DNA from: Gemmatimonadales bacterium
GTDB lineage: Bacteria > Gemmatimonadota > Gemmatimonadetes > Gemmatimonadales > GWC2-71-9
NCBI GenBank assembly: GCA_039794085.1
Contig: JBDIWC010000008.1
Coordinates: 44,845-108,844, forward strand
DNA: 64,000 bases
Reading direction: 5' to 3'
Positions 6,107 to 50,248 of the stretch are shown in pieces (within the stretch, counting starts at the first letter, position 1; the number at the start of each line of letters is the position of its first letter). The notes beneath the pieces were generated by a model. The model had not been told where the DNA came from and did no database searches. It was given only the letters and a program-made list of their open reading frames with translations. The translations under genes were made by a program, and so were the position numbers.

Positions 6107-7942
6107 ATGATGCAAGCGTTTCGAAACAGTGCCAAACCCATCGTGCTGATCCTGACCGTCTCGTTCTTCGGCTGGCTCGTTTTTGACCTGAGCGGCCTCA
6201 GTGGAGGGACAGGCCTGCTGACTCAGACCTCGGTCGGCAAGATCAATGGACGCACGATTGATGCCCGGCTCTTCCAGGAGGCCGTCCAGCAGGCCACGGA
6301 GGTGCAGCAACGTCAATCCCCAACACCACTTGGGGTATCTGACCAAGCCCAGATCCGGGACCAGGTGTGGGAGCAGTTCATTCAATCCACCATCCTGGAT
6401 GAGGAGTACCGCCGGAGGGGACTGCAAGTTTCGGCAAACGAGATCGCCGATGCAATACGAAACGTTCCCCCCCAGGAGATCCGAGCCGTCCCGACCTTTC
6501 AGACCGACGGCCAGTTCGACATGTCCAAGTACCAGGCCTGGCTCGGAACGACCGAGGGAATGAGTTATGTCCCGGTCCTGGAAGCCCGGTATCGCGACGA
6601 GATCCTCCGATCCAAACTGGTCCAGGACCTCATTTCCACGCTCTACGTGTCGGACGCTCAACTGTGGCAGCAGTACCGGGATGCCAACGACTCGATCTCC
6701 GTGGAGCTTGCCACCATCGACCCTCTCTCGGTCATCCCCGATACCGAGGCGCCGGTGACGGATAGCGAGGTCGAGAACTGGTTCCGCTCCCACCGGGATG
6801 ACTTCCGGCGCCAGAGAACGGCCTTTCTCAGCTTCATTGCCGTCGACAAGCAGGTCAACGCGTCCGACTCCGCCGCTGCATTGGCCAGGGCGGAGGCCCT
6901 CCGGGCGGAGATCCAGGGTGGAGCCCCGTTCGCGGAAGTCGCCCAGCGGGAATCGTCCGACACCGTTTCCGGCAGCCGCGGAGGTGATCTCGGCGAGTGG
7001 ACCCGGAACACCTTCGACCCCGCCTTCGAGGCGGCCGCCTTCCGGCTCCCGCTCAACACGGTTTCGGAGCCGGTCCTGACGCCGTTCGGCTATCACCTCA
7101 TCGAGATCACGAGCCGGAAGGGTGACACCATCTCCGGCCGGCACATTCTGGTCCCGATCGAGCTCGCCGGCTCCCACCGCGACCTGGTGGACGCTCGCGC
7201 CGACAGCCTGGAGTTGCTGGCCGCCGACCGGCTGGACCGGGCAGCACTCGATACCGCCTCCCGGGCTCTCGGGCTTCCCATCGTCGAAAGCGGGCCGGTC
7301 GTGGAGGGTGGCTTCGCTCCGGTGCACATCGACGCGACGATCTGGGCCTTCCAGGCCAAGCGGCATGAGCATAGCCCGGTTTTCGAGGCCCCCGCATCGT
7401 ACCTGGTCTACCGGGTAGACAGCCTCTGGCCGGCTGGCGTTCCCGCGCTGGGGGCCATCCGCGGGGAGGTGATTGCGGCGGTTCGAGCGGACAAGAAGAG
7501 GGCCCAGGCCCGGCGGTTGGCCGACTCCCTCGCAGCACGGGTTCGAGCAGGCACGACTCTCCGGGAGGCGGCAGCGGGACTCGGCGTTCCGGTCGAACCC
7601 CTGGGCCCCTTCACTCGGTACACCGCCCCGCTCCAGAGCGGACTGACCCTGGGAACGGCCTTCGGGTTGGAACCGGGGCAGACGAGTGGCACCATCGAAG
7701 AGAATGACCGTTTCTACCTGGTTCACGTCCGGGAACGATGGGCCGCCGACAGCAGCGCCTTTGCCAACTCCCTGGACAGCCTCCGCACCTCGACGTTGCA
7801 GACAGTTCGGCAGAATTATGTGCAGCGCTATTTTGCGGCCCTGCGATCCCAGGCCAAGCTCGCTGACTATCGGTCAGAGCTCTATCGGACGGCGGCTCAG
7901 AACGAGGCTCTCGCGCCCCCCGTTCCTCCTCCGGCCTATTGA
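6107..7942 (+). CDS. PpiD/SurA-family periplasmic chaperone / parvulin PPIase
   Basis: N-terminal TM, SurA_N-like region (VGKING...), parvulin motif FAEVAQRESSD...GGDLG...FEAAAF...SEPVLTPFGYHLI. Confidence 0.88.
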   Translation: MMQAFRNSAKPIVLILTVSFFGWLVFDLSGLSGGTGLLTQTSVGKINGRTIDARLFQEAVQQATEVQQRQSPTPLGVSDQAQIRDQVWEQFIQSTILDEEYRRRGLQVSANEIADAIRNVPPQEIRAVPTFQTDGQFDMSKYQAWLGTTEGMSYVPVLEARYRDEILRSKLVQDLISTLYVSDAQLWQQYRDANDSISVELATIDPLSVIPDTEAPVTDSEVENWFRSHRDDFRRQRTAFLSFIAVDKQVNASDSAAALARAEALRAEIQGGAPFAEVAQRESSDTVSGSRGGDLGEWTRNTFDPAFEAAAFRLPLNTVSEPVLTPFGYHLIEITSRKGDTISGRHILVPIELAGSHRDLVDARADSLELLAADRLDRAALDTASRALGLPIVESGPVVEGGFAPVHIDATIWAFQAKRHEHSPVFEAPASYLVYRVDSLWPAGVPALGAIRGEVIAAVRADKKRAQARRLADSLAARVRAGTTLREAAAGLGVPVEPLGPFTRYTAPLQSGLTLGTAFGLEPGQTSGTIEENDRFYLVHVRERWAADSSAFANSLDSLRTSTLQTVRQNYVQRYFAALRSQAKLADYRSELYRTAAQNEALAPPVPPPAY

Positions 7943-7967
7943 CGCCGGGCCGTCGGCCACCCATGCG

Positions 7968-8001
7968 AAACGCGGTGCCTGCAGGCACCGCGTTTTCTTT
8001 T
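7968..8001. terminator. Bidirectional intrinsic terminator between ppiD and tatA
   Basis: Perfect 28-bp palindrome AAACGCGGTGCCTGCAGGCACCGCGTTT (7968-7995) followed by T-run, between convergent genes. Confidence 0.85.
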
Positions 8002-8019
8002 CACCCCTCTCCCACCGAC

Positions 8020-8277
8020 CTATTGGGAGAGGCGCTTCGGCTCCCCGGAGGATGCGGGAGGCTGCTGCGAGGCGGCATCCATTTGCCTGCCCGGGGGAAG
8101 GTTTCGTTCCTCTCCCGTGCCGGTCACGGCGTTTTCCACGTCGCTGAAGCTCCTCTTGAACTCACGGATTCCCTTCCCGAACGACGCCCCGATCTCTGGA
8201 AGTCGCTTGGCCCCGAACACGAGCAACACGACCAGCAGGATGATCATGATCTCGCCGAAACCCAGATTTCCCAACAT
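8020..8277 (-). CDS. tatA: Twin-arginine translocase TatA/TatE subunit
   Basis: MLGNLGFGEIMIILLVVLLVFGAKRLPEIGASFGKGIREFK; GGAGG RBS before ATG 8277. Confidence 0.93.
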   Translation of the reverse strand: MLGNLGFGEIMIILLVVLLVFGAKRLPEIGASFGKGIREFKRSFSDVENAVTGTGEERNLPPGRQMDAASQQPPASSGEPKRLSQ

Positions 8278-8294
8278 GGTGTCCTCCTGCAAGC

Positions 8295-8567
8295 TTAGAA
8301 CAGCGATTTGGCGATCAGGTAGGCCAGAACCACCCCGATCAGGCTCAGCAGTGACACATCGACACCAGCCGGCCCCAGAGTGAAGTGTACCACAAGGAGA
8401 TCGACCGGAACAGGCCCGACTCCGAAGGTCACTCCGTAGGTAAAGAAATCCCGGGTGGGACTTTCCGGGAGGAATCGCCGGAGAAAGGCCGTCAGGAAGC
8501 CCCCCAGGACGAAGCCGGCCAGGAGGACCGACAGGTAGAATCGGGGTCGGCGGGGTCCGACAGCCAT
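8295..8567 (-). CDS. Small membrane protein, DUF4321-like
   Basis: Two hydrophobic segments around FGVGPVPVDLLVVHFTLG...VSLLSLIG; coupled to upstream gene. Confidence 0.65.
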   Translation of the reverse strand: MAVGPRRPRFYLSVLLAGFVLGGFLTAFLRRFLPESPTRDFFTYGVTFGVGPVPVDLLVVHFTLGPAGVDVSLLSLIGVVLAYLIAKSLF

Positions 8568-9559
8568 CAGCTCCTCCGTTCGAGAATGTAGCAGAGACTC
8601 GCCCGGAGCGTCTCCCGCGCGGGAGAGGGTGGCAGGACGGCCAATTCCGCCTCCGCCTCTTCCAGGAGGGCCTGGGCGCGGTCGCGTGCGTAGGCCAGCC
8701 CGCCGCGGTCGGCGACAATGCCAATCACCGCGCTCACCTGGTCGCCACGGGGATCGGGATTGGCGAAGAGTTCGTCGACCACCGCGCGCTCGCCCCGGGA
8801 CAGCCGGGGAAGGACATGGATGAGGGGGAGGGTGATCTTGTGCTCCCGAAGATCCAGGCCGGCGGGTTTCCCCGTGATGGTCGCATCGGAGGTGAAGTCG
8901 AGCAGGTCATCGACGATCTGGAAGGCACGGCCGAGCCGGTCCCCGAAGCGAGCCATGGCCTCGCGCCGCCCCGCGGGCGCGCCGAGCGCACCCACCTCAC
9001 AGGCACCGGAGACGAGGGAGGCCGTCTTCGACCGAATGAGGAGGTTGTAGTCCTCCTCGGTGAAGGCGAGAGGGTCGACGGCCAGGAGCTGCCGCATCTC
9101 CCCCACGGTCATCTCATTGGTCACCCGGGCCAGGACCTGGAGGGGGACAAGGTCGTCCAGGCGAACCAGTTCAATCACGGCCCGGGAGTAGAGATAGTCT
9201 CCCATGATCACCGAGACCTGGTGACTGAAGAGGGAGTTGATCGTGGGCATTCCGCGACGAAGCACGGAATGATCCACCGCATCGTCATGGACCAGCGTGG
9301 CCAGGTGAATCAGTTCCACCACCGCGGCAAGCCGCACGGCCGTGGCCGGATCGGTTCCCTCGCTCGCATCCCGTGAGAGGAGCACCAGGGTGGGGCGGAA
9401 CATCTTGCCCTGCATGCGGAGGAGGTGAGCATTGACTTCCACGATCAACCCGAAATCGGCCACGATGAGCTGGGAGAGCCTGTCCCGCACCTCATCGAGA
9501 CGCGATTCCAGTCCGGCCTGGATGTCACCGAGGGTGACCGGCGAGGTTCCGCTCGTCAT
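8567..9559 (-). CDS. Long-chain polyprenyl diphosphate synthase (IspB-like)
   Basis: GKMFRP, FARM HDDAVD..RRG, KTA, SARM FQIVDDLLD; small residue five before FARM. Confidence 0.92.
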   Translation of the reverse strand: MTSGTSPVTLGDIQAGLESRLDEVRDRLSQLIVADFGLIVEVNAHLLRMQGKMFRPTLVLLSRDASEGTDPATAVRLAAVVELIHLATLVHDDAVDHSVLRRGMPTINSLFSHQVSVIMGDYLYSRAVIELVRLDDLVPLQVLARVTNEMTVGEMRQLLAVDPLAFTEEDYNLLIRSKTASLVSGACEVGALGAPAGRREAMARFGDRLGRAFQIVDDLLDFTSDATITGKPAGLDLREHKITLPLIHVLPRLSRGERAVVDELFANPDPRGDQVSAVIGIVADRGGLAYARDRAQALLEEAEAELAVLPPSPARETLRASLCYILERRS

Positions 9560-11904
9560 CGTCCCCCTCCCAGGGCGTGGACCCGGGGCCCCAGATCGAG
9601 AAACCGGATGTCCACCGCCAGGGCTCGTTCGTACCAGGGCAACGCCTCCCCGCCGCGTTCCAGGGCCTCAAGGGACCGCCCCAGCCAATAGATCAGCCCG
9701 ATCTTCTCGTCATCCGATCCCGGCACGGACTCGATCGCCCGGCGCAGTACCGCCTCCGCAATGGCGTATCGCCCCTTCTCGTAGAAGGAGATCCCCAAGG
9801 CCTCCGAGGCCCGGAGGCGTCCTTCGGGAGAACGGAGAGCCTTCTGAAACTGGGCGATCGCCTCATCGAGCAGGCCCATCTCCTTGAAGGCGATTCCGAG
9901 GTCGTACTGGGCCTGGAAGTCCTCACTGTCGAGGTTCTCCTCGATTCCTCTCTTGAACTGGCTCAAGGTTTCGAGGAAGTCCTTGTCCTCATCGCCAACG
10001 GGTTCCTCCGCATCGACCCGCATCCGGGTATCCCGGGCCGGGACCGGATCCATGATGAGGGCGCCCAGGTCCACGAAATCGTTTCCGCCCGTCGGCTCGG
10101 CCGGTGCCAGGGGCGCCGCGGCCGGAGGAATGGGGCCGGAGGTGTCCGGAGAACGGGACGGGGAAGGCGCCTGCAGGGTGAGAATGGCTGCCTGGGCCAC
10201 GGCGTTCCCCGGATCGAGCTCCTCCACGCGCCGATAGACGGCCAACGCGTTCTCCGCCGCACCGATGCGCAGAAGGGCGTCGGCCAGACCGAGGTAGCTC
10301 CGCACCAGGAGAACGGGGTCACCGGAGTGATAGGCCAGCTCCACCCGCTTCTGGAATCGGGGGAGGTTGTCGGGTTCGAGAGTAATCAGGTCCCCCGCCA
10401 CCACCAGCGCCTCCTCCCACCGGGACGCCACCTCGTGCAGCCGGAGCAGGTCTTCCAGCACCTCGATTCCGCCCGGGTGGTTTCCCCGCTCCAGGAGGGC
10501 GGAGGCCTCTCGCCGCAGGGCGACCGGGTCGGATCGATCGAGGGCGGCTTCCACGAGGTCGGCGGCATCGAGGGACTCGAAGAGCGCCTCGTCGGTCCCG
10601 GGAACCGGCTCCCGCTCGACCGATGCCGTCTCCCGTCCCGAAATCTCCGGAGCCTCCGTCAACTCGAAATCATCACGGCCGGTGTCCGCGGCCCCGTCCC
10701 ATTCCCCGCCCACCTCGGACCACTCCTCCCCGGAGGGGGGAAGGATCACTTCCACTCCCCCCAGGTCACCGTCCACTTCCGAGACCCCGGGGAGATCGAC
10801 ATCCAGGGCCTCCGCGGCCAGCTCCACCGCAAGATCAGGCAGGGAGGAATCGGGCGCCCCCTCAAACTCAAGGAGTGGCTCGGGTTCGACCTGGTCGAGT
10901 TCGAGGGAGGGGAGATCCTGCGCATCGTGCGAGGGAGCAAAGTCGTGGTTGGTGACGAAATCCAGGGGCGCCGTGTCGACGACCTGTATCTCCTCGGCGG
11001 GCACCTCCCACTCGGGTCCCCGGGAGGTGGGGTCCTCCAGGGTCGTGGCATCGGGATCCTGGATGATCTCCACCTCATCGCCCGAGCCATCCCACCGCAG
11101 ATCACGCGAACCATCCAGATCGATTCCGGAATCCTCCGCGGCCCCCTCCCCGGACTCCACCACCTCTGTCGCCTCATTCTCGGGACCAACCTCCGCCCTC
11201 CGCGTCGGTACGATTCCTGGCACCCCCGACCCGGTATCGAGGAACACCAGCCCCGATCCCGCCAAACTCGGTGGGATGTCCTGCATTCCCCCGGTTTCGA
11301 TGGCCTCGGCCCGTTCCCGGGTTCGGCGGGCCCCCCGCACGTCACCCTGGACCTCGAGATGGGAGGCGAGCTTCTCCAACTGTTCCCTGGCCTCGTCGGT
11401 CCGGGAGGCCGCCCGGAGGAGCTCGCTCAGCATCAGTCGAATGTCGGGATTGCCCGAGAAGGTGTCGGCAAAGGCCTTCACCGACTGGAAGGCATCCTCG
11501 AGACGTCCCACCGAGTGCATCCGCTCCACATATTCGAGGAGGTTCCTCTTCGCCTCCGGAATGACATTCTTGCGGGAATGGAGCTGGGCGAGGCGGAGAT
11601 AGGTTTCGGTACGACCCGGGTTGACCCGGAGGATCTTGCCACAGAGAGCGATCGCGTTGTTGTAGAATCCCTGGTCCGCGTAGAGCTCCGCGGCCTGCTC
11701 ATAACCCCGGAGGGCGGCCGCCGAGTCCCCCGCCTTCATCTCGAGATCGCCCACCTTGTTGTACAGGCTCGGGTCCACGCTCTCGGACCCGGTGCCGAGT
11801 CCCTGGATGGCCCTGTGGTAGACCTCGATGGCTCGACGCCACTCCTCCCGTTGCTCAAACCGGCGGGCCTGTTCCTTGAGCTTGTCGAGATTCATCCGGG
11901 CCAC
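9556..11904 (-). CDS. Large TPR protein with acidic central linker
   Basis: N-terminal TPR array, D/E-rich linker, C-terminal TPRs incl. DFQAQYDLGIAFKEMGLLDEAIAQFQKA. Confidence 0.8.
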   Translation of the reverse strand: MARMNLDKLKEQARRFEQREEWRRAIEVYHRAIQGLGTGSESVDPSLYNKVGDLEMKAGDSAAALRGYEQAAELYADQGFYNNAIALCGKILRVNPGRTETYLRLAQLHSRKNVIPEAKRNLLEYVERMHSVGRLEDAFQSVKAFADTFSGNPDIRLMLSELLRAASRTDEAREQLEKLASHLEVQGDVRGARRTRERAEAIETGGMQDIPPSLAGSGLVFLDTGSGVPGIVPTRRAEVGPENEATEVVESGEGAAEDSGIDLDGSRDLRWDGSGDEVEIIQDPDATTLEDPTSRGPEWEVPAEEIQVVDTAPLDFVTNHDFAPSHDAQDLPSLELDQVEPEPLLEFEGAPDSSLPDLAVELAAEALDVDLPGVSEVDGDLGGVEVILPPSGEEWSEVGGEWDGAADTGRDDFELTEAPEISGRETASVEREPVPGTDEALFESLDAADLVEAALDRSDPVALRREASALLERGNHPGGIEVLEDLLRLHEVASRWEEALVVAGDLITLEPDNLPRFQKRVELAYHSGDPVLLVRSYLGLADALLRIGAAENALAVYRRVEELDPGNAVAQAAILTLQAPSPSRSPDTSGPIPPAAAPLAPAEPTGGNDFVDLGALIMDPVPARDTRMRVDAEEPVGDEDKDFLETLSQFKRGIEENLDSEDFQAQYDLGIAFKEMGLLDEAIAQFQKALRSPEGRLRASEALGISFYEKGRYAIAEAVLRRAIESVPGSDDEKIGLIYWLGRSLEALERGGEALPWYERALAVDIRFLDLGPRVHALGGGR

Positions 11905-11946
11905 GGGTCAGAGACGAAGGATGTGGTGAACCTGTTGCAACCTCGC

Positions 11947-11975
11947 AAGATAGATCCCCTCTCCGGGCCGGGCAA
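11947..11975 (-). promoter_or_regulatory. Sigma70-type promoter for TPR-ispB-DUF4321-tatA
   Basis: Minus strand TTGCCC-17 nt-TATCTT. Confidence 0.55.
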
Positions 11976-11979
11976 GCAA

Positions 11980-13512
11980 TTACCCCGCCGTCCGGGCCGG
12001 ATCCAGACGTCCCTCGGCAACCAGGGCCGCCAGCCGCTCCAGATCCACCCCGGGTGGCCGGTCCACCGTCAGCGGGGCTACACCACCAGGTCCTCGGACA
12101 AGGTCGAAGAGCCGGCGCACGCCGCGACCGGGCTGGAGCGGGCGCAGGATCTCCAACCCTTGGGCGCCGCAGAGAAACTCGGCCGCCACCACCAGCTGGG
12201 CGTTCGCCAGAACTCGGCGGGCCTTGAATGCGGCGGCCATTCCCATGGGCACAAAGTCCTCCTGGTTGGCATCGGTGGGGATCGAGCCGATGCTGGCCGG
12301 ATAGGACAAGGTTCTCGATTCGGCCACCAGGGAGGCCGCCGTGATCTGCACCATCATGAATCCCGAGGAGAGGCCGGCCGACGAGGTCAGGAAGGCGGGG
12401 AGCCCCTGACTCAGATCGGGGTTGACCAGCCGCTCGATGCGCCGCTCACTGATAGTCTGCAGGGTGGTCAGCGCGATGGTGACGAAGTCCATAGCCTGGG
12501 CCACCGGCTGGCCGTGGAAGTTGCCCCCCGACAGCACCTCGGACCCGAACACCAGGGGATTGTCGGTCGAGGCGTTGAGCTCGACCGACGCCACGCGGCG
12601 CGCGAACGTGATCGCATCCCACACGGCACCCAGCACCTGAGGAGTGCACCGGAGGCTGTAGGCATCCTGGACCCGGGAGTCGCCCTGACGATGGGACTCC
12701 CGGATGGGGCTGTCGTGGAGGAGGTCGCGCATCAGGCGGGCGGCGATCCCCTGCCCCTGGTGGGGGCGGGCCTCATGAATCCGGGGATCGAGCGGGGTCG
12801 GGGTCCCTCGCAGCGCCTCCAGGCTCATCGCCGCCGCCCCGATCGCGGAGCGCCACAGAACCTCCGCGTCGTGCACCAGGAGGGTGAGGACGGCGGTCTG
12901 GGCCTGAGTTCCGTTGATGAAGGCCAGACCCTCCTTGGGGCCGAACGTGAAGGGCTCCAGCCCGCATTCCTTCAGGACGAGGTGCGATGCGTCAACGGTG
13001 CCATCCGGCCGGGCGAGGGTGCCCTCCCCCATCAATGCCAGCGCCAGGTGGCTGAGAGGTGCCAGATCCCCGCTCGCCCCCACGCTGCCCTGTTCCGGCA
13101 CGACTGGGATCGCCCCGCTGTTGAGCAGCGCCACCAGCGCTTGCGCCAGCGCCGGGCGCACGCCACTGGTGGGTCGGAGCAGCACATTGGCGCGGAGGCA
13201 CATCATGGCCCGTACCACGTCCCGCGGGAGGGGAGTCCCCACGCCCGCCGCGTGACTGCGGATCAGGTTGGCCTGCAGCGCGGTCAGGTCGTCCGGACCG
13301 ATGCGGACATCCGCCAGCTTGCCGAATCCGGTGTTGATGCCGTACATGGTGTCGCCCCGGGCCACGGCTCGCTCCACGACGGCACGGGTGCCGGCCATGG
13401 CGTCGAGGGCCCGGGGGTCGATGTCGATCCGGAGATCCGGATTCCGGGCAATGCGGGTCAGGTCCTCAATGGACAGCGACAGGCCGGTCAGGCGAAGGGG
13501 GGTGTCGGTCAT
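11980..13512 (-). CDS. hutH: Histidine ammonia-lyase
   Basis: YGINTGFG, HAL-type NLIRSHAAG, MIO motif GSVGASGDL, VQDAYSLRC, SGGNFHG, NQEDFVPMG; ATG 13512. Confidence 0.92.
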   Translation of the reverse strand: MTDTPLRLTGLSLSIEDLTRIARNPDLRIDIDPRALDAMAGTRAVVERAVARGDTMYGINTGFGKLADVRIGPDDLTALQANLIRSHAAGVGTPLPRDVVRAMMCLRANVLLRPTSGVRPALAQALVALLNSGAIPVVPEQGSVGASGDLAPLSHLALALMGEGTLARPDGTVDASHLVLKECGLEPFTFGPKEGLAFINGTQAQTAVLTLLVHDAEVLWRSAIGAAAMSLEALRGTPTPLDPRIHEARPHQGQGIAARLMRDLLHDSPIRESHRQGDSRVQDAYSLRCTPQVLGAVWDAITFARRVASVELNASTDNPLVFGSEVLSGGNFHGQPVAQAMDFVTIALTTLQTISERRIERLVNPDLSQGLPAFLTSSAGLSSGFMMVQITAASLVAESRTLSYPASIGSIPTDANQEDFVPMGMAAAFKARRVLANAQLVVAAEFLCGAQGLEILRPLQPGRGVRRLFDLVRGPGGVAPLTVDRPPGVDLERLAALVAEGRLDPARTAG

Positions 13513-13518
13513 GGGCGG

Positions 13519-13547
13519 AAAGTGCGGGGCCCCGGGACCGGGGGCAA
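13519..13547 (-). promoter_or_regulatory. Candidate leaderless promoter for hutH
   Basis: TTGCCC-17 nt-CACTTT, 6 nt before ATG; no SD. Confidence 0.35.
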
Positions 13548-13599
13548 GGTCGGGGTCCTCCCCGGAGCGATGGCGCATGTGGCGATGTGTCAGGCGTCG

Positions 13600-16500
13600 C
13601 TACCGGACGGAGGTCTGGTTGTAGTCGAACTTGATGTCGGGAAGGTCGATCAGGTGGATCGAGAAGAAGAAGGAGAAATTGCCGTTGGCGTTCTGCGCGA
13701 AATTGAACGCGGCCTGCCAGTCGTGAAGATCCCGCTGGAGCCGGAAGATGTGGCTCTCGAACTTTCCGTCCGTCGCGTTGTAGTTGGTGTCCCAGGCCAC
13801 GGCCCAGAACGCGGTGGGGCTGAAGGTGGTGTTGAAACGGATGTTGCTCTTGGTGGGCTGACGAACCGACAGGGTGTCCCCCTTGAGTGGGGGGCGGCTT
13901 CGGTTGATGGTGACGTTGATCGTGGAGGAGAACCCCCGGCCGCTCGGGAACCGCCCGAAGTCGCGGGCGCTGGTGATGGGCGCCTGGAACGGGGCTCCGG
14001 CGTTCGGGCTCATCCCCGGCGGGACCGTGGGGCGGTTGGCGTCGGGGGCATCCCGGTCCGCGATACCGAACAGGGAGCCGATCCCGCGTAGAGTGCGCCC
14101 GGTGAGGGTGAAACTCGCGTTCACGCTCTGGAGGAACGGTTCGAAGCGCGAGCTGTCGAACCCGGCCACTCCACGCCAGAGGTCGTGTCCCAGAGTGAGG
14201 TCAAATCCGGGCAGCAGATCCGAGTCGAACCGGTTGGTGATGAACTGGGTGACCCACCCGTTCCGCCCCGGCTTCTTGGCCTGCTCGAAGTCGAACGTGA
14301 TTCCCGACGTGGAAATGCCGAGGAGCCGGAACTTCCGCTGGGTACGACTCGTGGTATCCCCGGGAGCGGGCCGTTCCTTCGCCTCGAAGTTCTGGGACAG
14401 GGAGAGCGTGAGGGTCGTGACCGCGGGACTCTCGCGCGTCACCACCTGCCCGGGGTTCGCGACCGCTTCGGCGAACTCCTGGGACACGGTGGCCGTGGGC
14501 GAATGATTGAACGAGAGAGAGGGCGCAATGCTGTGCCGGATCCGCTCAATCGGTCCAAACCCGGGAAAGAACCCGAAGAAGGTCGGGGCCGCGGCCAGAC
14601 TGAAGGAGAGCCGCTTCCCCTGCACCAGGTAGGCCCCTCCGGTCCGCTCGTTTCGGATGACGAAGGGTTGTCCCGCCAACTTGTTCGCGATCCCGACGGA
14701 CGGGGTGACCTTCCACGAGCTCCGGAGGAGGAGCGGGAGGTTGATCCCGGTGTCCCAGTTCAGGGTGGTCGCGAAGGTCCCGGTGGTCACTTGCTGGACG
14801 CTGATCGAGTCATCCGGCTCCGGGGTGGAGAGATCGGGGACCTTCCGAGTGACGGTGCGGGGGCTCCGTTCCTCCCGGTCCGCAATGTTGACCGCGTTCC
14901 GCCAATCAAAGGTTCCGATGCGGAGCGGTGTCATGATGTTGATCGTTGTGTTGCGGGTCGTGGCGCGAAACGTCAGGGAGTCCAGTTCTCCCACCGGGGT
15001 CGCCAGGGAGACGATTCCATCCCGCCGTGTCGTCGCATTGCTCAACCGGAACGTGGGAGACCAGGTCACCGACCCCCCGAGATCGATCGGATTGGGGTTG
15101 AGGGACAGTTCCGGAAAGTTGGTCCGCACCTCGCTGTCGTTCGGGCTCTGGCTCCGGGTGCCCCCGAGGGAGGCCGTCCCCCACCGGAATCGGCGATCGA
15201 GATTCATCGAGGAGCGGATGTTCTGGGTGTTGACGATCGGGTCGATGGCGTTGTTGTTCAGGACTCGGGTGTTGCTCGCGACATCGAGGTTGAGCGTCAA
15301 GCGCGTGGCCACCCCGAAGCTCTGCCGGTGGTTCCAGGCGATGCGCGTGTTTGACTCCCCGCTGCCGTCGATCTGTTTCAGCCGTGACCAGGAAAGGTTT
15401 CCCTCCAGAAACCGGTCGAGCCACCGGTACTGCCCCGCGACCTCGATTCGCGTGCTCCGGTTGGCCAGCCAATCGAAGGTCCCCACAAAATCGAAGTAGT
15501 CGCTGGCGGCCCAGTAATACCCCATGTTGGTGACCTGGCGATTGAAGTTCCGGGTGGGGCGCACGATGTCGTTGAAGCCGAACCGCGGCACCAGAATGCC
15601 GGAGCGACGTCCCTGCTTGGTATCCTGGAAGATGAAGGGGAGCCAGAGCACCGGCACATCCCGGATGTAGAGCACCGCGGGGCGCGCCACCATCGTGGAC
15701 TGCGAGACCCATTTCACCTCTTTCGCGGCGAAATGATAGTGCGATTCGGGGAGGTCGCAGCTGGTGATCTCCTTGGCGGCGGCATACAGGCGGCTCGAGA
15801 CCGAGTCGACGGCCAGGTTGCCCCGGATGAACCAGTTGGCGCCCTGCTGGTTGAAGGAGGTGAGGGCGTCGGACAAGACCCCGCGCTCGACACAGGTGTC
15901 GTAGCGCACCGTGTCCCCGATGGCCACCTGGTTGTTCTGGAAGAGTCGCGGTCCCCCGGTGGCGGTGAAGCGGCAGGCCGGGTCGTCGTACTCGATGATC
16001 TCCGCCTCCAGGATCGCTCCGCTTCGTTCCGTCATGGCCTGGCCCTGCAGCCGCAGCAGGCGGGTCCCGGCGTTCACCGACGCCGAATCGGCCATGTAGC
16101 GCGTCACCGCGAAGCCGGGCCGGGTAAGGAGACGTTGGAGAATGGAATCCCCGGGTCCGAAGCTCTTGCTCGGGCCGGTCGGGAGCCCCATGCGCTGGGC
16201 CGCGGCGGAATCCCGGGCCACCTGCGCCGCCCGGATGGAGTCCTGGGCGGTCATCGAATCGGGCACCACCCGGGTGGTGTCCTGTTGTGCTGTGGCGGAT
16301 CCGGAGGGGACCCCCATCAGGAGCACCAGGGCTCCCACCGCGGCCGCCACCCGCCGGCGCCGGTGAATCACCATCGCCCCGGCCACCCCGACCTCGTAGA
16401 GCAACAGCAGCGGGAGGGTCATGATCAACATGGAGAAGACATCGGGACCCGGAGAGAAGAAGGCCCCCCCCACGAAGGCGAGCACCATCCAGTAGCGCCG

Positions 16501-17091
16501 GAACCGGTGGAGAATCACCGGGGTCACCACGCCGAGCGCCGCCAGCGTGATGATGATGAGCGGCAGCTCGAAGGAGAGTCCCATGCCGAGCATGATCCGG
16601 ATGACGAAGCCGAAGTACTTGTCATACGTGATCATGGTGGTGAACGATCCCGCCTCGATGCTGAGGAGGACGCTGATGGCCTTGGGTACCACCAGCAGGA
16701 ACGAGAGCACCGCCCCGGTCAGAAAGAGCAGCAGCCCCGCAAAGAGACTGGGGACGATCGCCTTCTTTTCCTTCTCGTAGAGGGCCGGAGAGAGAAACGC
16801 CCACACCTGCCAGAGGATGACCGGAGACGCCAGCACCAGGCCGGTGATGAATCCCAGCTTGAGCACGATCATGACCGGTTCGGTCGGGCTCAGGACGGTC
16901 AGTTTCCCGTCGGGAAGGAACGGGGCGATCGGCCCCTTGAGAACGTCGATCAGATGCAACTGGTCGACGAGAAGGAGGCCCAGGCCAAACCCCGCCACCA
17001 CGGCCAGCAGCACCCTCAGAATGCGGGTGCGCAACTCCTCGAGGTGGTCGAGGAACGGCATCTCACCCTCGACAGCGGGAGGTCGGGACAT
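13600..17091 (-). CDS. TatC - LptD (LPS-assembly outer-membrane protein) fusion
   Basis: N-terminal part is TatC (MPFLDHLEELR, LSPTEP, WAFLSPALY..EKK, FELP, PDVFSM...LYE); C-terminal ~900 aa is LptD-like (ITSCDLPESHYHF, VPVLWLPF...RRSGILVP, alternating beta strands, LQRDLHDW); no in-frame stop between them. Confidence 0.85.
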   Translation of the reverse strand: MSRPPAVEGEMPFLDHLEELRTRILRVLLAVVAGFGLGLLLVDQLHLIDVLKGPIAPFLPDGKLTVLSPTEPVMIVLKLGFITGLVLASPVILWQVWAFLSPALYEKEKKAIVPSLFAGLLLFLTGAVLSFLLVVPKAISVLLSIEAGSFTTMITYDKYFGFVIRIMLGMGLSFELPLIIITLAALGVVTPVILHRFRRYWMVLAFVGGAFFSPGPDVFSMLIMTLPLLLLYEVGVAGAMVIHRRRRVAAAVGALVLLMGVPSGSATAQQDTTRVVPDSMTAQDSIRAAQVARDSAAAQRMGLPTGPSKSFGPGDSILQRLLTRPGFAVTRYMADSASVNAGTRLLRLQGQAMTERSGAILEAEIIEYDDPACRFTATGGPRLFQNNQVAIGDTVRYDTCVERGVLSDALTSFNQQGANWFIRGNLAVDSVSSRLYAAAKEITSCDLPESHYHFAAKEVKWVSQSTMVARPAVLYIRDVPVLWLPFIFQDTKQGRRSGILVPRFGFNDIVRPTRNFNRQVTNMGYYWAASDYFDFVGTFDWLANRSTRIEVAGQYRWLDRFLEGNLSWSRLKQIDGSGESNTRIAWNHRQSFGVATRLTLNLDVASNTRVLNNNAIDPIVNTQNIRSSMNLDRRFRWGTASLGGTRSQSPNDSEVRTNFPELSLNPNPIDLGGSVTWSPTFRLSNATTRRDGIVSLATPVGELDSLTFRATTRNTTINIMTPLRIGTFDWRNAVNIADREERSPRTVTRKVPDLSTPEPDDSISVQQVTTGTFATTLNWDTGINLPLLLRSSWKVTPSVGIANKLAGQPFVIRNERTGGAYLVQGKRLSFSLAAAPTFFGFFPGFGPIERIRHSIAPSLSFNHSPTATVSQEFAEAVANPGQVVTRESPAVTTLTLSLSQNFEAKERPAPGDTTSRTQRKFRLLGISTSGITFDFEQAKKPGRNGWVTQFITNRFDSDLLPGFDLTLGHDLWRGVAGFDSSRFEPFLQSVNASFTLTGRTLRGIGSLFGIADRDAPDANRPTVPPGMSPNAGAPFQAPITSARDFGRFPSGRGFSSTINVTINRSRPPLKGDTLSVRQPTKSNIRFNTTFSPTAFWAVAWDTNYNATDGKFESHIFRLQRDLHDWQAAFNFAQNANGNFSFFFSIHLIDLPDIKFDYNQTSVR

Positions 17092-17130
17092 GGCAGGCTC
17101 AGGCGCGCGGCCGGCCTCGGGCACCGCCGG

Positions 17131-17916
17131 TCAGGGCCGGAGAGCCGAGAGCCGGTCGCGGGCGAGGTTGGCTTCCGGTGCCCGGGGATAATTGCGAACA
17201 ACCGTCTGGTAGGCATCGCGGGCGGCCTCCAGGTCCTGCCTCAGTTCGGCGAGTTGGCCGATCTTGTACCACGCCGTGGGGGCTCGCTCCGAGGACGCAT
17301 ACCGCGTCGTGACCTCGCGGAAGTAATGGGCCGCGGAGTCGGGGTTCTCCACGGCGAAGGTTTCCCCCAGGGAGAGGAGCGCGAAGGGAACCTGTTCGCT
17401 GGTGGGCCAGGCCCGGAGGAAGTCGCGGAAGGCGGCACGGGCCGTCCCGAGGCTCCCGCGGAGGTGCATGGCCCGGGCGGCCTGGAACATTTCGTCCGCC
17501 GACGGGGTGGGGGCCGGGGCCAGACTGTCCCCGAGCAGCGAATCGGGTGTGGCCGGAGCCTGCAGTTGCTGCCCCCGGGTGTCCAGTTGCACCTTGAGCT
17601 CGGACAGGCGCCGCTGGCTCTGGCCGGTGAGCTCCTGGATCTGCAGCAGCTGCTGCTGGATGTTGAAGAGATCCTCCGCGAGCTCCCCCTTCGAGATGCG
17701 CACCGATTCCCGCACCGACCGCAGGGAGTCCATCACCGCCTCCTGGGTCCGGAGGATGGCGCCGATGTCAGCCGCATGCGCACTGTCGCGCCGCGCGGCC
17801 TCGGTGCGGAGGACGAGAACCTGGGTCTCGACCTTCCGCACCGCGCCGTTGGTGGCGCACCCGCCCAGCAGCAGGGCGCAGGCGCCACCGACCAGCAACC
17901 GACGTCCGCTCATCAC
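17131..17916 (-). CDS. cpoB: Tol-Pal cell division coordinator CpoB/YbgF (lipoprotein)
   Basis: Lipobox LGGC, coiled coil, C-terminal TPRs (AWYKIG...YQTVVRNYP..PEA); follows pal. Confidence 0.8.
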   Translation of the reverse strand: MMSGRRLLVGGACALLLGGCATNGAVRKVETQVLVLRTEAARRDSAHAADIGAILRTQEAVMDSLRSVRESVRISKGELAEDLFNIQQQLLQIQELTGQSQRRLSELKVQLDTRGQQLQAPATPDSLLGDSLAPAPTPSADEMFQAARAMHLRGSLGTARAAFRDFLRAWPTSEQVPFALLSLGETFAVENPDSAAHYFREVTTRYASSERAPTAWYKIGQLAELRQDLEAARDAYQTVVRNYPRAPEANLARDRLSALRP

Positions 17917-18473
17917 GGGGTGGGCCGGATGCTTTCCCGCCCGGCGAGGATCTCGAACTCCCCGCGACGGTTCATGGCCCAGGCCGATTCGTTCTGCCCC
18001 CGGTCGAGGGGCCGCTCCTCGCCAAAGGAGATGATGGTGATCCGGTCCTCGGCGATCCCCTTGGCCACGAGGTACCGCTTGGCCGAGGCCGCGCGCCGGT
18101 TCCCCAGCGCCAGGTTGTACTCATCCGATCCCCGGTCATCGGCGTGTCCGGCGATCCGGATCCGCAACTGGGGATAGGTCCGGAGCAGATCGGCCTTCCG
18201 GTCCAGCACCGCCTGATCCGCGGGACGAATGTCCGAGCGGTCGTAGTCGAAGTGCACCATCGCCGCAAGATCGTTGACCACCCGGGTCCGGAACGCTTCC
18301 AGTTCCGCCGCACTGTTGTCCGGGGCCGGGGGGGGCGGCGGCGGGGGGGGCGGCGGGGGGGGAGGGGGCGGGGGGGGAGGGGCCGGGGCGGGAACCACCT
18401 CGGGCTGCTTCTTGCCGCACGCTCCCGCTGTCAGTGCCATCAGGCCGAGCAGCAGTATCGTCCGCATCCGCAT
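17913..18473 (-). CDS. pal: Peptidoglycan-associated lipoprotein Pal with polyproline linker
   Basis: Lipobox AGAC, VHFDYD, GHADDRGSDEYNLALGNRRA, ISFGEERP, NRR. Confidence 0.93.
   Translation of the reverse strand: MRMRTILLLGLMALTAGACGKKQPEVVPAPAPPPPPPPPPPPPPPPPPPAPDNSAAELEAFRTRVVNDLAAMVHFDYDRSDIRPADQAVLDRKADLLRTYPQLRIRIAGHADDRGSDEYNLALGNRRAASAKRYLVAKGIAEDRITIISFGEERPLDRGQNESAWAMNRRGEFEILAGRESIRPTP
18327..18380. repeat. (CCN)18 tract encoding 18 consecutive prolines
   Basis: G-rich run on + strand containing several G7-G9 homopolymers. Confidence 0.95.
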
Positions 18474-18497
18474 TGCAAACTCCTCGTTGAAGTCATC

Positions 18498-19793
18498 CTA
18501 CCGTGGGCTCAAATATCGCGACCAGGACGGCAGCCGCGCCACTCCGGGTGTCGGGATCTGCCGCACCCGAAAAGTATCCAGATCGATCACATGCAACTGT
18601 CCCCGACCGGTCCGATCGGACACGAACACCAGATGCCGCCCGTCGGGCGCCCAACTCGGATCCTCGTTCCGCCCGCTGGACGAGAGCTGCCTCGCCTGCC
18701 GCCGGGCGATATCGAAGACCCAGATCTGCGGAGTCCGGGCGGTTTCCCGGTGAAATGCGACCGTGGTACCGTCCGGTGACCACTCGGGGGCATTGGAACT
18801 CCCCGTCCGTCCGAAATCGAACGGGACGAGCAACTCCTGCTGAGTGCCGTCGCTCGCCATGGCATAGATCTGCTGCCCCCCGGCACGCGTCGACACGAAC
18901 CCGATCCGGCGTCCGTCAGGAGAATACGCAGGCGAGAGATTATCCGCAAACGGTCCCGAGGTGAGGCGCTCGACGCAGCACATCTCACCCACATTGACCC
19001 GCACGAGGTTGGTGCCGCGTTCTCCCGACTGGGCAAACACCACGAAGCGACCGTCCGGGGAAAAAACCGGAGTGATGTTGGTCTGGCTGTCGGTGGTGGG
19101 CAGGGTGGCCCGGGACCCCGTGGCCAGGCGCTGCAGCACCACAGACCACCCGGACTCATGCAGGTGGACATAGGCGAACTGACTCCCGTCGGGCGACCAG
19201 GCCGGGCTGAGGGCCGTCTGCCCCCCGGGAGTCATGGGTGTGAGGCCGTACCCATCGCTGTCGATCCGAAAGATCCGGCCTCCGGAAACGAACAGGATCC
19301 GGCTGGCCGCGTACCCGGTGACCCCGGCCCCCCACTGGACGATCTCATCGGCCAGACGGTGAAGGCTCAGGCGGCTCTCTCCGGCTCCGGTCACATCGAG
19401 GGGTCTGGTGACTTCGACCCGGACCTCCCTCCGTTCCACGTCATGAAGCCGGACGTTCACCCCGCTCGCGGCCTCCCGCAGTTCCAGGACAAGGATCGCG
19501 CCCAGGGTCTGGTAGAGCGCGTAGTTGATGGAATCCACGGCGGGGGCGACGATAGTGGAGTCCGACCGGAGAGTGATGACCTCGAATCGATCCGAATAGT
19601 CCAGGTCCCGGGCAAGAATCGTCCGGAGGGAGTCAAGCCGCGGGATGGTGGGAAGAATCACGATGCCCGGACGAGCCCCGGGGCGATATTCGGTACCGAG
19701 AATGATCCGGTCCGGGGTCCGGGTCGTGTCCTGCCCGGCCAGGGGACCGGCCAGTCCGGCCAGGGCCGCCAGCAGGGGAAGGAACCGCCTCAC
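18498..19793 (-). CDS. tolB: Tol-Pal beta-propeller protein TolB
   Basis: Signal peptide, DLDYSDRF, HRLADEI, repeated PD40 motifs (PAWSPDG, PVFSPDG, PEWSPDG). Confidence 0.9.
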   Translation of the reverse strand: MRRFLPLLAALAGLAGPLAGQDTTRTPDRIILGTEYRPGARPGIVILPTIPRLDSLRTILARDLDYSDRFEVITLRSDSTIVAPAVDSINYALYQTLGAILVLELREAASGVNVRLHDVERREVRVEVTRPLDVTGAGESRLSLHRLADEIVQWGAGVTGYAASRILFVSGGRIFRIDSDGYGLTPMTPGGQTALSPAWSPDGSQFAYVHLHESGWSVVLQRLATGSRATLPTTDSQTNITPVFSPDGRFVVFAQSGERGTNLVRVNVGEMCCVERLTSGPFADNLSPAYSPDGRRIGFVSTRAGGQQIYAMASDGTQQELLVPFDFGRTGSSNAPEWSPDGTTVAFHRETARTPQIWVFDIARRQARQLSSSGRNEDPSWAPDGRHLVFVSDRTGRGQLHVIDLDTFRVRQIPTPGVARLPSWSRYLSPR

Positions 19794-37654: not shown

Positions 37655-38586
37655 GGAGCAGGATGGCCCTGGAAGAAGGCGATGGTGCGCTGCAGTCCTT
37701 CCTCCAACTGCACCGTGGGCTCCCACCCCAGAATCGTGGACGCGTGGGTGATGTCCGGCTGCCGCACCGTGGGATCATCGACCGGGAGCGGTTCCTCCCG
37801 AATGGGAGAGGACGACCCGGTCAGGCGGAGCACCAGGGCGGCGAGTTCCCGGATGGTGAACTCGTTGGGGTTCCCGATGTTGGTCGGGTCGACTCGTTCG
37901 CTGTGGAAGAGGCGGGTGATCCCGTCCACCAGGTCGCTGACGAAGCAGAAGGACCGGGTCTGGGAGCCGGAGCCATACATGGTCAGGGGCTCGCCTCGGA
38001 GTGCCTGCACGATGAAATTGGACACCACACGACCGTCTTGCTCCCGCATCCGTGGTCCATAGGTGTTGAAGATCCGGACGATCCGCGTTTCGACACCATG
38101 GGCCCGGTGATAGGCCATGGTCATGGCTTCGGCAAACCGCTTGGCTTCGTCATACACTCCCCGAGGCCCTACCGGGTTGACGTTGCCCCAATAGGTCTCG
38201 GGCTGGGGGTGGACCTTGGGGTCCCCATACACTTCCGAGGTCGAGGCGAGGAGAAAGCGGGCCCCTGCGGCGCGAGCCAATCCGAGAGCATTGTGGGTAC
38301 CGAGGCTCCCCACCTTCAGGGTCTGGATCGGGTACCGGAGATAGTCCACCGGGCTCGCGGGGGAAGCGAAGTGGAGCACTCCATCGAGCGGTTCCGGAAC
38401 GGTGAGGTGGGTCGTCACATCCTGCTGGATGAGCCGAAACCTGTCATGGCCCGCCAGGTGGGCGACATTCTCGGGACGTCCGGTCAGAAAGTTGTCCACA
38501 CCGATGACCGTGTGTCCATCGGCCAGGAAGCGGTCCGTCAAGTGGGATCCGAGGAAGCCGGCGGCCCCGGTGATGAGGACCCTCAT
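37651..38586 (-). CDS. uxs: UDP-glucuronate decarboxylase (UDP-xylose synthase)
   Basis: [49 protein letters not shown]. Confidence 0.88.
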
Positions 38587-39890
38587 GCCCCCCCCCTCCC
38601 CACGCCCAGGTATCGAAACCCGTGCCGGGCCATCCGGTCCGGAGAGTAGAGATTGCGGCCATCCACGATGCAGGGGGTCTCGAGAAGATCGCGGAGGCGC
38701 TCGAAGTCGGGGTTCCGATACATCAGCCACTCGGTCACGATCACCAGGGCCGACGCCCCGCGAGCGGCCTCATACGGATCGGTGTGGTAGGTGATCCGGT
38801 CCCCGAAGTGAACGCCAAAGGTGTCCAGGGCCTTGGGGTCGTGCACATGGACGCCTGCCCCGGCCTCCAGCAGACTCTCCACCAGCGGAATGGCCGGACT
38901 CTCCCGCACATCGTCCGTGCCCGCCTTGAAGCTGAGTCCCCACACGGCGACCCGTCGTCCCGCCAGATCGGGGCCGAGGGCCACCCGCACTTTCCGGAAC
39001 AGCATGCCCTTCTGGTGCCGGTTGACCGATTCCACCGCTTCCAGGAGGGAGGGGGTGATGCCCGCCTCTCGCGCCGTTCCGATCAGGGCACGAACGTCCT
39101 TCGGAAAGCAGGACCCGCCGTACCCCGGGCCGGGAAAGAGAAAGGAGCTGCCGATACGGGAATCGGTGGCCATGCCATGCCGCACCAGGGAGACGTCCGC
39201 GCCCACCCGTTCGCAGATCTCCGCCACCTGGTTCATGAAGGAGATCCGGGCGGCCAACATCGCATTGGCGGCATACTTGGTGATTTCGGCGGAACAGATG
39301 TCCATGAACAGGATCGGATTCCCGGTCCGCACGAACGGAGCATAGAGCTCTCCCATGATGTCGCGGGCTTCGTCCGAATCCACCCCGATCACGACACGAT
39401 CGGGCTTCATGAAATCATCCACCGCCGCCCCCTCCTTCAGAAACTCGGGATTGGAGCACACGCTGAACGACACATCGGTTTCGGCGGCGATCGCCTCCCG
39501 CACGCGGGCGGCGGTGCCGACCGGCACGGTCGACTTGGTGACCACCACGGTCGGTTCCCGCATGTGGCGGCCGATGGCCCGGGCCACCGCCAGGACGTGC
39601 TGCAGGTCGGCCGATCCGTCCTCCTGGGGAGGCGTTCCCACCGCGATGAAGATTACCCGGGCGTGGCGGACCGCCAGGCCCACGTCACTGGTGAACCGGA
39701 GGCGGCCGTCCGCCAGGTTCTGGCGCACCAGCGGCTCCAGCCCCGGCTCATAGATGGGAATGTCCCCGGCTGTCAGCCGCGTTACCTTCGCCTCGTCGAT
39801 GTCGGCGCAGATGACGTCGTTGCCGGTCTCGGCGAAGCACGCCCCGGCCACCAGACCAACATATCCCGTTCCCACCACGGCGAGGCGCAT
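38583..39890 (-). CDS. ugd: UDP-glucose 6-dehydrogenase
   Basis: [33 protein letters not shown]. Confidence 0.9.
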
Positions 39891-39894
39891 CCGA

Positions 39895-43307: not shown

Positions 43308-43418
43308 GGACTCACCATCGGGAGGGGGGGGCACCGGTGCCACAGCGCCCGTCCAGGAACCGGGGAGAGGCATCCTCAAACGGGCGGCTCGGTATCTCGT
43401 AAATCATGGCAAGAGGGA

Positions 43419-43448
43419 AACTTAACCGCACTCATCCCCGCTCGGCAA
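43419..43448 (-). promoter_or_regulatory. Candidate internal promoter upstream of wbpE-like gene
   Basis: TTGCCG-18 nt-TAAGTT at the only sizeable gap in the cluster. Confidence 0.4.
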
Positions 43449-44028
43449 TCAGGCCAGGCCCGTCCCCCCCCTCCTCCCGCCGATAGTCGAGACCACACTC
43501 GGAGCACCGTCCCCGTCCGGTCTGGTCCACCTCGGGCCCGAGCCGGACCCCACACCGGCACATCCACCCGATGCGACGAGCCGGCACTCCGACCACCAGG
43601 GCGTGAGGGGGGACATCCTGAGCCACCACCGCCCCGGCCCCGACGAAGGCGTATTCCCCCAGGGTGGTCCCGCAGACGATCGTGGCATTGGCACCGATCG
43701 TGGCCCCCCGGCGCACCAGGGTACGCCGGTATTCTCCCCGGCGCGACACATGGCTCCGGGGGTTCATGACATTGGTGAAGACACAGCTGGGACCGCAGAA
43801 CACGTCATCCTCCAGTTCCACTCCTTCATAGATGGAGACATTGTTCTGGATCTTGACGTTGGCTCCGATGCGGGTTCCGGGCATGACCACCACGTTCTGC
43901 CCGAGGTTGCACCGGGGCCCGATGACGGCTCCGGGCATGATGTGGCAGAAGTGCCAGATCCGGGTTCCCTCGCCGATCTCGGCCCCCTCATCCACATATG
44001 CCGACTCGTGCGCTCTGTATGCTGTCAT
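43432..44028 (-). CDS. Hexapeptide-repeat N-acetyltransferase (WbpD-like)
   Basis: [34 protein letters not shown]-terminal WMCRCG...CSECG. Confidence 0.88.

Positions 44029-44996: not shown

Positions 44997-50248
<5,252 letters not shown>

Follow-up and report, generated by a model that had tools for sequence, protein, structure and literature searches.

Sequence-based prediction of a general O-glycosylation system of the Bacteroidota type in a Gemmatimonadales bacterium

Results

Sequons are enriched in exported proteins

The exported proteins of a Gemmatimonadales bacterium are enriched in the tripeptide D-[S/T]-[A/I/L/V/M/T], the sequon of the general O-glycosylation system of Bacteroidota, and we consider it very probable, from sequences, that this lineage possesses a system of the same type. 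The motif was noticed in a stretch of 64,000 nucleotides (the window; contig JBDIWC010000008.1, positions 44,845 to 108,844; GC 66-68%), part of contig C8 of a 4.16 Mb assembly (GCA_039794085.1, hereafter G000) that is 94.7% complete. An initial annotation had counted sequons by hand in four exported and four cytoplasmic proteins and had proposed an equivalent glycosylation system. This proposal is supported by the enrichment, the specificity of the motif, the conservation of the sites in the chaperone PpiD and the glycans published for a species of the same order.

Genes were called with a self-trained model (3463 in all) and export classes were assigned with our own rules on hydrophobicity and cleavage sites, in place of Prodigal or SignalP. 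The 622 predicted exported proteins contained 1281 sequons as against 709 expected (observed/expected ratio, O/E, 1.81; 5.6 per 1000 residues), and the 1440 cytoplasmic proteins 1156 as against 1097 (O/E 1.05; 2.7 per 1000). The exported/cytoplasmic ratio amounted to 1.71 after composition correction (bootstrap 95% confidence interval (CI) 1.53-1.90), roughly half of what the four exported proteins picked by hand had shown. The enrichment claimed initially is thus present proteome-wide, though its size of about 6-fold was overstated by a selective sample.

Control motifs, a check suggested by the initial annotation, were at or below expectation, with exported/cytoplasmic ratios of 0.86 for E-[ST]-h, 0.99 for [ST]-D-h and 0.87 for D-[ST]-other, where h is A/I/L/V/M/T. 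The first of these values indicates that Asp is needed at -1 and that Glu is apparently no substitute. The enrichment was mostly due to the D-S form (ratio 2.37, as compared with 1.19 for D-T). In a first classifier pass, 278 signal-peptide proteins had an O/E of 1.54, 91 lipoproteins and 126 N-anchored proteins each one of 2.04, and 1518 cytoplasmic proteins one of 1.12; DSL, DSA and DST ranked as the top three among 4342 tripeptides. After D-S, the enriched +1 residues were L (3.5), A (2.4), T (2.3), V (2.0), I (1.9), M (1.7) and S (1.3), none of the other 13 exceeding 1; measured glycosites of Bacteroidota prefer L/I/V/T/A/S/M at this position (PMC12871550). By class, the values were 2.15 for lipoproteins, 2.07 for N-anchored proteins and 0.85 for barrel-like proteins (37 vs 44 sites; 20 heuristically assigned barrels). 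The glycoproteins of Porphyromonas gingivalis are mostly lipoproteins or inner-membrane proteins, with a bias against barrels (PMC8729774).

Several trivial causes could be discarded. Overall composition does not account for the enrichment, given the corrected ratio and the fact that whole-protein shuffles of the exported set yielded 717 ± 25 sites (200 shuffles, maximum 774); the enrichment therefore persisted in the composition-matched comparison proposed initially. Local composition was ruled out by 15-residue block shuffles, which also fell short of the observed count (737 ± 28 sites; 100 shuffles, maximum 808). A handful of repeat-rich proteins is not responsible either, since O/E was still 1.39 without the top 10% of proteins (cytoplasmic proteins, 0.75). 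N-glycosylation was excluded because N-x-S/T had an O/E of about 1.0 and no STT3 was found in G000. Hundreds of envelope proteins are, on this prediction, likely to be glycosylated in this organism. The densest carriers were encoded at G000:C16:9833-11332 (-), with 19 sites in 478 residues, and at G000:C41:26769-31169 (+), with 22 sites in 1445 residues.

Sequons in the proteins encoded in the window

The exported proteins concerned are encoded within positions 6107..19793:

6107..7942 (+): ppiD (SurA_N and Rotamase; Pfam/NCBIfam), inner-membrane-anchored chaperone, 9 sequons in 611 residues
13600..17124 (-): tatC-lptD, one fused open frame (Pfam/NCBIfam), LptD being the C-terminal part
16204..16281 (-): four sequons, DTT, DSM, DSI and DSA (residues 282-305 of the frame), just past the internal signal-peptide-like segment of LptD; the cleavage site is a predicted one
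17131..17916 (-): cpoB-like lipoprotein, 5 sequons in 261 residues vs 0.7 expected
17913..18473 (-): pal, OmpA family lipoprotein, 0 sequons in 168 residues
18498..19793 (-): tolB, 4 sequons in 431 residues, every one in residues 22-87

All manual counts of the initial annotation were reproduced for these proteins and for the cytoplasmic controls (CarB 3, SecA 2, UvrB 2, RelA 1). The sites of PpiD are at residues 195, 254, 285, 340, 366, 382, 438, 473 and 557; in the fused frame, the TatC part has none and the LptD part 12, of which 8 lie within residues 282-440. PpiD, LptD, CpoB and TolB together have 30 sites in 2127 residues, as compared with 8.0 expected from their own composition, and the four controls have 8 as compared with 8.6. 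Pfam and NCBIfam agreed with the gene identities given initially, but LptD is one end of a longer frame: TatC and LptD_2 domains share a single open frame (13600-17124, -), with the signal-peptide-like segment as joint. Pal and a TolA/TonB-like protein (190 residues) of the same operon, in or at the edge of the interval 6107..19793, had been left uncounted and carry no sequon, hence the four-protein sample was a favourable one.

Sequons are conserved in PpiD orthologues of the same order

PpiD orthologues of the same order had 243 sites vs 52.8 expected (30 genomes, G000 included). The figures were 38/16.8 in other Gemmatimonadota orders (10 proteins), 36/14.5 in another class (8), 43/10.7 in Fibrobacterota (6) and 43/21.6 in Bacteroidota (12). 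Outside the Fibrobacteres-Chlorobi-Bacteroidetes (FCB) group, they were 69/51.8 in Pseudomonadota (29 of 30 proteins), 8/7.2 in Myxococcota (6 of 7) and 1/3.5 in Verrucomicrobiota (2). Single proteins gave 4/1.5 (Latescibacterota), 3/1.4 (Zixibacteria), 1/1.0 (Eisenbacteria) and 2/1.1 (Deltaproteobacteria).

At each of the first seven of the nine sites of PpiD, 23-26 of the 29 orthologues from the same order had retained the motif, with exchanges between S and T and between +1 residues (at 254: DSA, DTA, DSV, DSI); sites 473 and 557 are private. None of 29 Pseudomonadota orthologues, and none of 9 from other non-FCB lineages, had the motif at the seven conserved columns. Helix capping, which the initial annotation had named as an alternative origin of the motif, does not fit these columns. 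We infer that the conservation reflects selection on the motif class rather than a requirement of the fold.

The enrichment in other lineages

The same pipeline was applied to DNA fetched from other lineages, each control sample being named after the genome at its centre. The exported/cytoplasmic ratio was 1.02 in Pseudomonadota (400 kb, 14 genomes), 0.87 in Myxococcota (400 kb, 16 genomes) and 0.73 in six loci of the Planctomycetes-Verrucomicrobia-Chlamydiae group. The initial annotation had asked if high-GC bacteria outside FCB display the same enrichment; they do not, the ratio being 1.03 in Pseudomonadota and Myxococcota at GC of at least 60% (CI 0.76-1.38; 69 exported proteins). Fibrobacterota had a ratio of 1.90 (CI 1.36-2.65), D-S and D-T being equally enriched, in line with the system suggested for that phylum (PMC12871550), and one Zixibacteria genome a ratio of 1.47 (CI 0.79-2.49). 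Seven named Gemmatimonadota loci comprised 3 exported proteins in all, too few for a ratio, and the enrichment in Gemmatimonadota orders beyond our own is that of PpiD alone.

Published glycans in a species of the same order are on Asp-preceded residues

O-glycans have been modelled on Thr108 of PufC and Ser331 of PufM in the cryo-EM structure (PDB 7o0u) of the reaction centre-double light-harvesting (RC-dLH) complex of Gemmatimonas phototrophica, and both appear to share the mannose, glucuronic acid and rhamnose core of heparinase II from Pedobacter heparinus (PMC8849296). In the PDB chains, these residues stand in D107-T108-L109 (7o0u_C) and D330-S331-F332 (7o0u_M). Both published sites are thus preceded by Asp, D-T-L being a canonical sequon and D-S-F a form of the extended motif, to which F at +1 belongs (PMC8729774). 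Neither 'motif' nor 'Bacteroid' occurs in the text of PMC8849296, and a term search of PMC12817894 returned no mention of glycans; the link of the 7o0u glycans to the sequon, absent from the former text, is proposed here from the sequences. The initial annotation had been unaware of any such system described in this lineage. In fact, glycans were already published for the phylum, without the sequon link in that text.

PufM and PufC of the same-order genome G153 are identical to the 7o0u chains. The D-T-L of PufC sits in a six-residue stretch for which PufC of 8wdu has no counterpart in the alignment. Three phototrophic genomes were found, and in all of them the PufM tail contains 3-4 further sequons. 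No pufLM match was obtained in G000. As a separate observation, the C-terminal tails of gemmatimonad PufM and PufC (loci L375, L376 and L377) carry several sequons and the aligned tail of 8wdu PufC has none.

A TMEM260-like protein as candidate transferase

The core oligosaccharyltransferase (OTase), the flippase and the ligase of the Bacteroidota system are described as undiscovered, with homologues of eukaryotic O-mannosylation enzymes as a suggestion (PMC12871550); a preprint of July 2026 still calls the OTase unidentified (10.64898/2026.07.27.740950). G000 has a single gene of the DUF2723 family (PF11028):

G000:C1:43897-46179: TMEM260-like protein with a glycosyltransferase C (GT-C) fold, 760 residues (PF11028, 147 bits; cut-off 24.2)

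Human TMEM260 (PDB 9rql) was its sole sequence match in the PDB (E 2.5e-16; 2.3e-49 with a profile). TMEM260 is established as a protein O-mannosyltransferase and has remote homologues in bacteria (PMC10214176). Residues D52, H67, R264, Y267, R355 and the catalytic base D441 of TMEM260 bind the donor or act in catalysis and matter for activity (10.64898/2026.03.17.711096). D52, H67, R355 and D441 align with D44, H59, R416 and D509 of the G000 protein, and R312-x-x-Y315 corresponds to R264/Y267 by spacing only; each of these was retained in 93-97 of 97 homologues. The AlphaFold model (pLDDT 94.7) displays a GT-C fold and was matched by Foldseek to PglB, STT3, AglB and ArnT.

PF11028 was present in 300 of the 301 genomes examined from our phylum (one of these, G172, is unpublished and the conclusion does not hinge on it), 49 of 51 Fibrobacterota and 201 of 201 genomes of one Bacteroidota order, as compared with 2 of 101 Pseudomonadota; among 14 control genomes, only Bacteroides thetaiotaomicron had it. 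In a FastTree tree of 70 rows (midpoint root; 30 of 45 Bacteroidia rows and rows of less than 380 residues omitted; sequences cut at 700 residues), one clade (SH-like support 100) gathered 48 rows from Gemmatimonadota, Bacteroidota, Fibrobacterota, Zixibacteria and Latescibacterota, largely split by phylum, and the G000 protein grouped with the named Gemmatimonadota rows. Its neighbours in the Atlas, too, were mostly Gemmatimonadota, the phylum in which we place the host. The clade also holds one unclassified row and, beside Prevotella, one labelled Sphaerochaetaceae; the contig of the latter (L193), with its Prevotella-like DUF2723, is probably a binning error. Among the 80 matches listed by a pattern scan, W-D-x-x-E is common to all members of this FCB clade, and R-E/D-R-D-Y and G-D-N-D to nearly all. 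At the position of R414 of the G000 protein, the clade rows that could be aligned have Arg, and 0 of 22 outside rows do; R414 adjoins residues that in TMEM260 contact the +1 position; E466 of TMEM260, which touches the -1 residue, is mostly Ser in the clade. We infer that R414, with this Ser, may read the Asp of the sequon. Supplementary rows list the DUF2723 enzyme itself among the glycoproteins measured in P. gingivalis and Prevotella intermedia.

Neither a PMT (PF02366) nor an STT3 was found in G000 at its 94.7% completeness, and an actinobacterial-type PMT was discarded as the transferase on this basis. TMTC gave no match in G000, nor did it in the controls. Weak matches comprised three PMT_2 and one Wzy_C in a polysaccharide cluster on C7, and another Wzy_C on C48. 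On balance, the DUF2723 GT-C of the FCB clade is, to judge from these data, somewhat favoured as protein-linking transferase and the best candidate for this role. A literature search, with most subscription papers outside its coverage, retrieved no published statement that a DUF2723/TMEM260-like protein has this function.

Three observations concern the surroundings and relatives of these genes. The DUF2723 gene is preceded, at a distance of 5.4 kb, by the gene of a Big_5 Ig-like lipoprotein (13 sequons in 415 residues; L032:2254-3501 (+), G000:C1), and purN/purH-like genes occupy the interval. On a Latescibacterota chromosome (L143:6809-17644), two FCB-clade DUF2723 genes stand directly upstream of ppiD. 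In one Planctomycetota genome (G342) and two of Anaerolineae (G320, G332), 6-11 divergent DUF2723 matches were found per genome, along with 10-12 YfhO-like ones, which suggests expanded GT-C systems of another kind.

A second GT-C protein, YfhO, and its operon

A glycosyltransferase operon on C16 encodes a family 2 glycosyltransferase (GT2), a family 4 glycosyltransferase (GT4), a flippase-like LPG_synthase_TM protein and the following two proteins:

G000:C16:994-1746: DPM1-like GT2, identified by motifs, no curated model scoring above its cut-off
G000:C16:1743-4121: YfhO-like GT-C (PF09586), adjoining the DPM1-like GT2

The Bacteroidota system has an LFG-type locus for its outer glycan (metG, wzx and a conserved pair of glycosyltransferases); what was found in G000 is the operon on C16. 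In Gemmatimonadota YfhO loci, the flippase-like gene was adjacent in 15 of 18 and a DPM1-like gene close by in 9 of 18. DPM1-like genes (48-54% identity) were near DUF2723 in 2 of 80 among the matches listed. YfhO matches were also found in Bacillus subtilis and Lactococcus lactis, and relatives in Chloroflexota, Planctomycetota, Verrucomicrobiota and Myxococcota.

Sugar supply

Three genes of the window may supply sugars of the core:

38583..39890 (-): UDP-glucose 6-dehydrogenase-like gene, a possible source of glucuronic acid, its link to the protein glycan being conjectural
48240..49190 (-): Rmd-like reductase, whose best solved matches make GDP-D-rhamnose, a possible deoxyhexose source
49187..50149 (-): gmd, GDP-mannose 4,6-dehydratase, adjoining the rmd-like gene

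Gmd and the Rmd-like reductase were found in 16 of 20 Gemmatimonadota, and were adjacent in 12 of 17 relative loci. The core deoxyhexose in Gemmatimonadota could be D-rhamnose made by Gmd/Rmd; these genes could equally serve lipopolysaccharide or exopolysaccharide. They belong to a nucleotide-sugar block around carB (window 36686-50149, -) with gmd, the rmd-like gene, two nucleoside diphosphate-sugar dehydrogenases, an aminotransferase, an acetyltransferase and epimerases. In several relatives, ppiD and the rmd-like gene share a contig, some 25-48 kb apart.

Discussion

Taken as a whole, the enrichment of sequons in exported proteins is best explained as the trace of general O-glycosylation of the Bacteroidota kind in the periplasm, a reading that we hold with high confidence. 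In the mechanism that we propose, the DPM1-like GT2 would load mannose on polyprenyl phosphate and the donor would then be flipped to the periplasm. The TMEM260-like GT-C would transfer the mannose, with inversion, to the hydroxyl of Ser/Thr, D509 serving as base and R414 reading the Asp at -1, and the YfhO-like protein, as second GT-C, would add or ligate outer sugars. The wider proposition is that D-S/T O-glycosylation is ancestral to the whole FCB group, the FCB-clade DUF2723 being the sequon-reading initiating O-mannosyltransferase whose invariant Arg recognises Asp, that YfhO performs a second periplasmic step, that the deoxyhexose may be D-rhamnose, and that photosystem subunits derived from Proteobacteria gained sequons after transfer. 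We give this composite proposition an even chance.

A number of results weigh against a Bacteroidota-type system in this lineage. D-S-F, although it has the +1 residue of the published PufM site, is not enriched in G000 (0.65). In 20 two-helix proteins, periplasmic loops (25 sites vs 14.6 expected) and cytoplasmic tails (37 vs 25.4) did not separate. In G153 (400 kb), D-S-h had a ratio of 2.46 (CI 1.61-3.66), but the full motif just 1.34 (CI 0.97-1.80) and D-T-h 0.65. The 52 Bacteroidota loci were a weak positive control (ratio only 1.20, CI 0.89-1.59), and one Latescibacterota genome with clade DUF2723 enzymes had a ratio of 0.76 (CI 0.42-1.63), a deficit traced to five barrel-like proteins (7 vs 29 sites), its N-anchored proteins having 12 vs 5. 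The sugars of the 7o0u glycans were assigned by map fit from the Pedobacter template, at sites without mass spectrometry coverage (PMC8849296). Of 5 genomes, 1 had RmlC, whereas no match was found in the other 4 (G000, two close relatives and the complete G153), so that an L-rhamnose in the core would have no canonical source there. As to the transferase, TMEM260 was absent among the listed Foldseek matches of the G000 model. Divergent, lower-scoring PF11028 members occur in 38 of 61 Myxococcota, a lineage without sequon enrichment, so that the family is not confined to FCB. The co-distribution of DUF2723 and motif rests on few independent contrasts, kin sharing traits. YfhO is nearly as widespread as DUF2723 (18 of 18 Gemmatimonadota, 194 of 201 genomes of the Bacteroidota order) and, unlike DUF2723, adjoins a DPM1-like gene in G000.

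We considered the possibility that exported proteins use the motif for structural or compositional reasons, at helix N-caps, strand starts or linkers, and that it is mostly unmodified. D285 of PpiD is indeed a family-conserved Asp (28 of 29 Pseudomonadota), about 55% of the sites of the exported set are expected by chance (709 of 1281) and sites are denser near mature N-termini (about 8 vs 4 per 1000). Yet the 38 non-FCB PpiD proteins, of the same fold, never have the motif at the seven conserved columns, block shuffles do not attain the observed count, non-FCB high-GC proteomes lack the enrichment and glycans have been modelled on such sites in a same-order species, so that this explanation appears improbable. 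Similarly slight is the chance that the motif is the sign of a different periplasmic modification or of glycosylation restricted to a few proteins, or that it is the relic of a system lost in this lineage. The strong Ser bias in G000, as compared with the equal enrichment of D-S and D-T in Fibrobacterota, would agree with this, as would the fact that two glycosylated sites are known for the phylum in the literature examined. However, the enrichment is broad, as judged from its persistence without the top 10% of proteins; in our order it exceeds that of the Bacteroidota loci sampled; and the candidate genes are undisrupted and keep their catalytic residues.

Another alternative retains the glycosylation system and makes the YfhO-like GT-C the protein-linking transferase, the TMEM260-like protein performing another step. 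YfhO has been predicted to be the OTase of Bacteroidota on the grounds of its similarity to PMT, conservation, predicted essentiality and topology (preprint 10.64898/2026.07.27.740950), and the GT2-GT4-flippase-like-YfhO-DPM1-like operon of G000 is consistent with it. P. gingivalis, said to be without YfhO, lists a putative YfhO/PMT protein (PGN_1968); as both families are listed there, this species fails to discriminate between DUF2723 and YfhO. By contrast, YfhO occurs outside FCB, and none of its relatives among those examined has a demonstrated protein acceptor, unlike TMEM260. It was also missed in 7 of 201 genomes, all with DUF2723, though such misses are to be expected of the low-scoring YfhO model. 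We regard this assignment as possible but doubtful, and rank DUF2723 above YfhO because its characterised relative performs this chemistry on proteins and because its clade tracks the motif. A two-step model needs two periplasmic transferases, and both proteins may take part.

The predicted system resembles that of Bacteroidota (Bacteroides fragilis, Tannerella forsythia, P. gingivalis, P. intermedia; PMC12871550) by its sequon, its +1 preference and an Asp that Glu does not replace, by its confinement to proteins outside the cytoplasm, above all lipoproteins and those anchored in the inner membrane, and by the presence of both DUF2723 and YfhO. It differs by the phylum, a stronger Ser bias and the failure to find RmlC while Gmd/Rmd are conserved, and it is here a prediction from sequences. 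The RC-dLH glycans of G. phototrophica share with it the order and the Asp-preceded sites; their core was modelled as Man(Rha)-GlcA, as in Pedobacter heparinase II, and they comprise two sites in one complex. TMEM260 shares with the bacterial protein PF11028, the GT-C fold and the equivalents of D52/H67/R355/D441; its own sequon is long, with Pro/Gly, in IPT domains (10.64898/2026.03.17.711096), and the bacterial clade, with predicted transferase activity, is distinguished by a W ahead of the first Asp, the R-E/D-R-D-Y motif and Ser at the E466 position. YfhO (PF09586), a GT-C family encoded in the G000 glycosyltransferase operon and proposed as OTase, is also common outside FCB, its link to the sequon being a prediction.

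Sequon-directed O-glycosylation has been called unique to Bacteroidota and suggested for Fibrobacterota, Gemmatimonadota going unnamed in the text (PMC12871550). Within the coverage of our literature search, we found no published statement of such O-glycosylation in Gemmatimonadota, though the tree-wide enrichment plot of that paper (Fig. 2A) may already include the phylum. If true, the extension to Gemmatimonadota shifts the origin of the system toward the FCB ancestor and explains two orphan glycans of the published 7o0u structure, and the missing enzymes are narrowed to two GT-C genes, one of which has a disease gene as its human relative (TMEM260).

The window also encodes, at 9556-11904 (-), a protein of 782 residues that matches no family besides tetratricopeptide repeats, which it has at each end, on either side of a long acidic middle.

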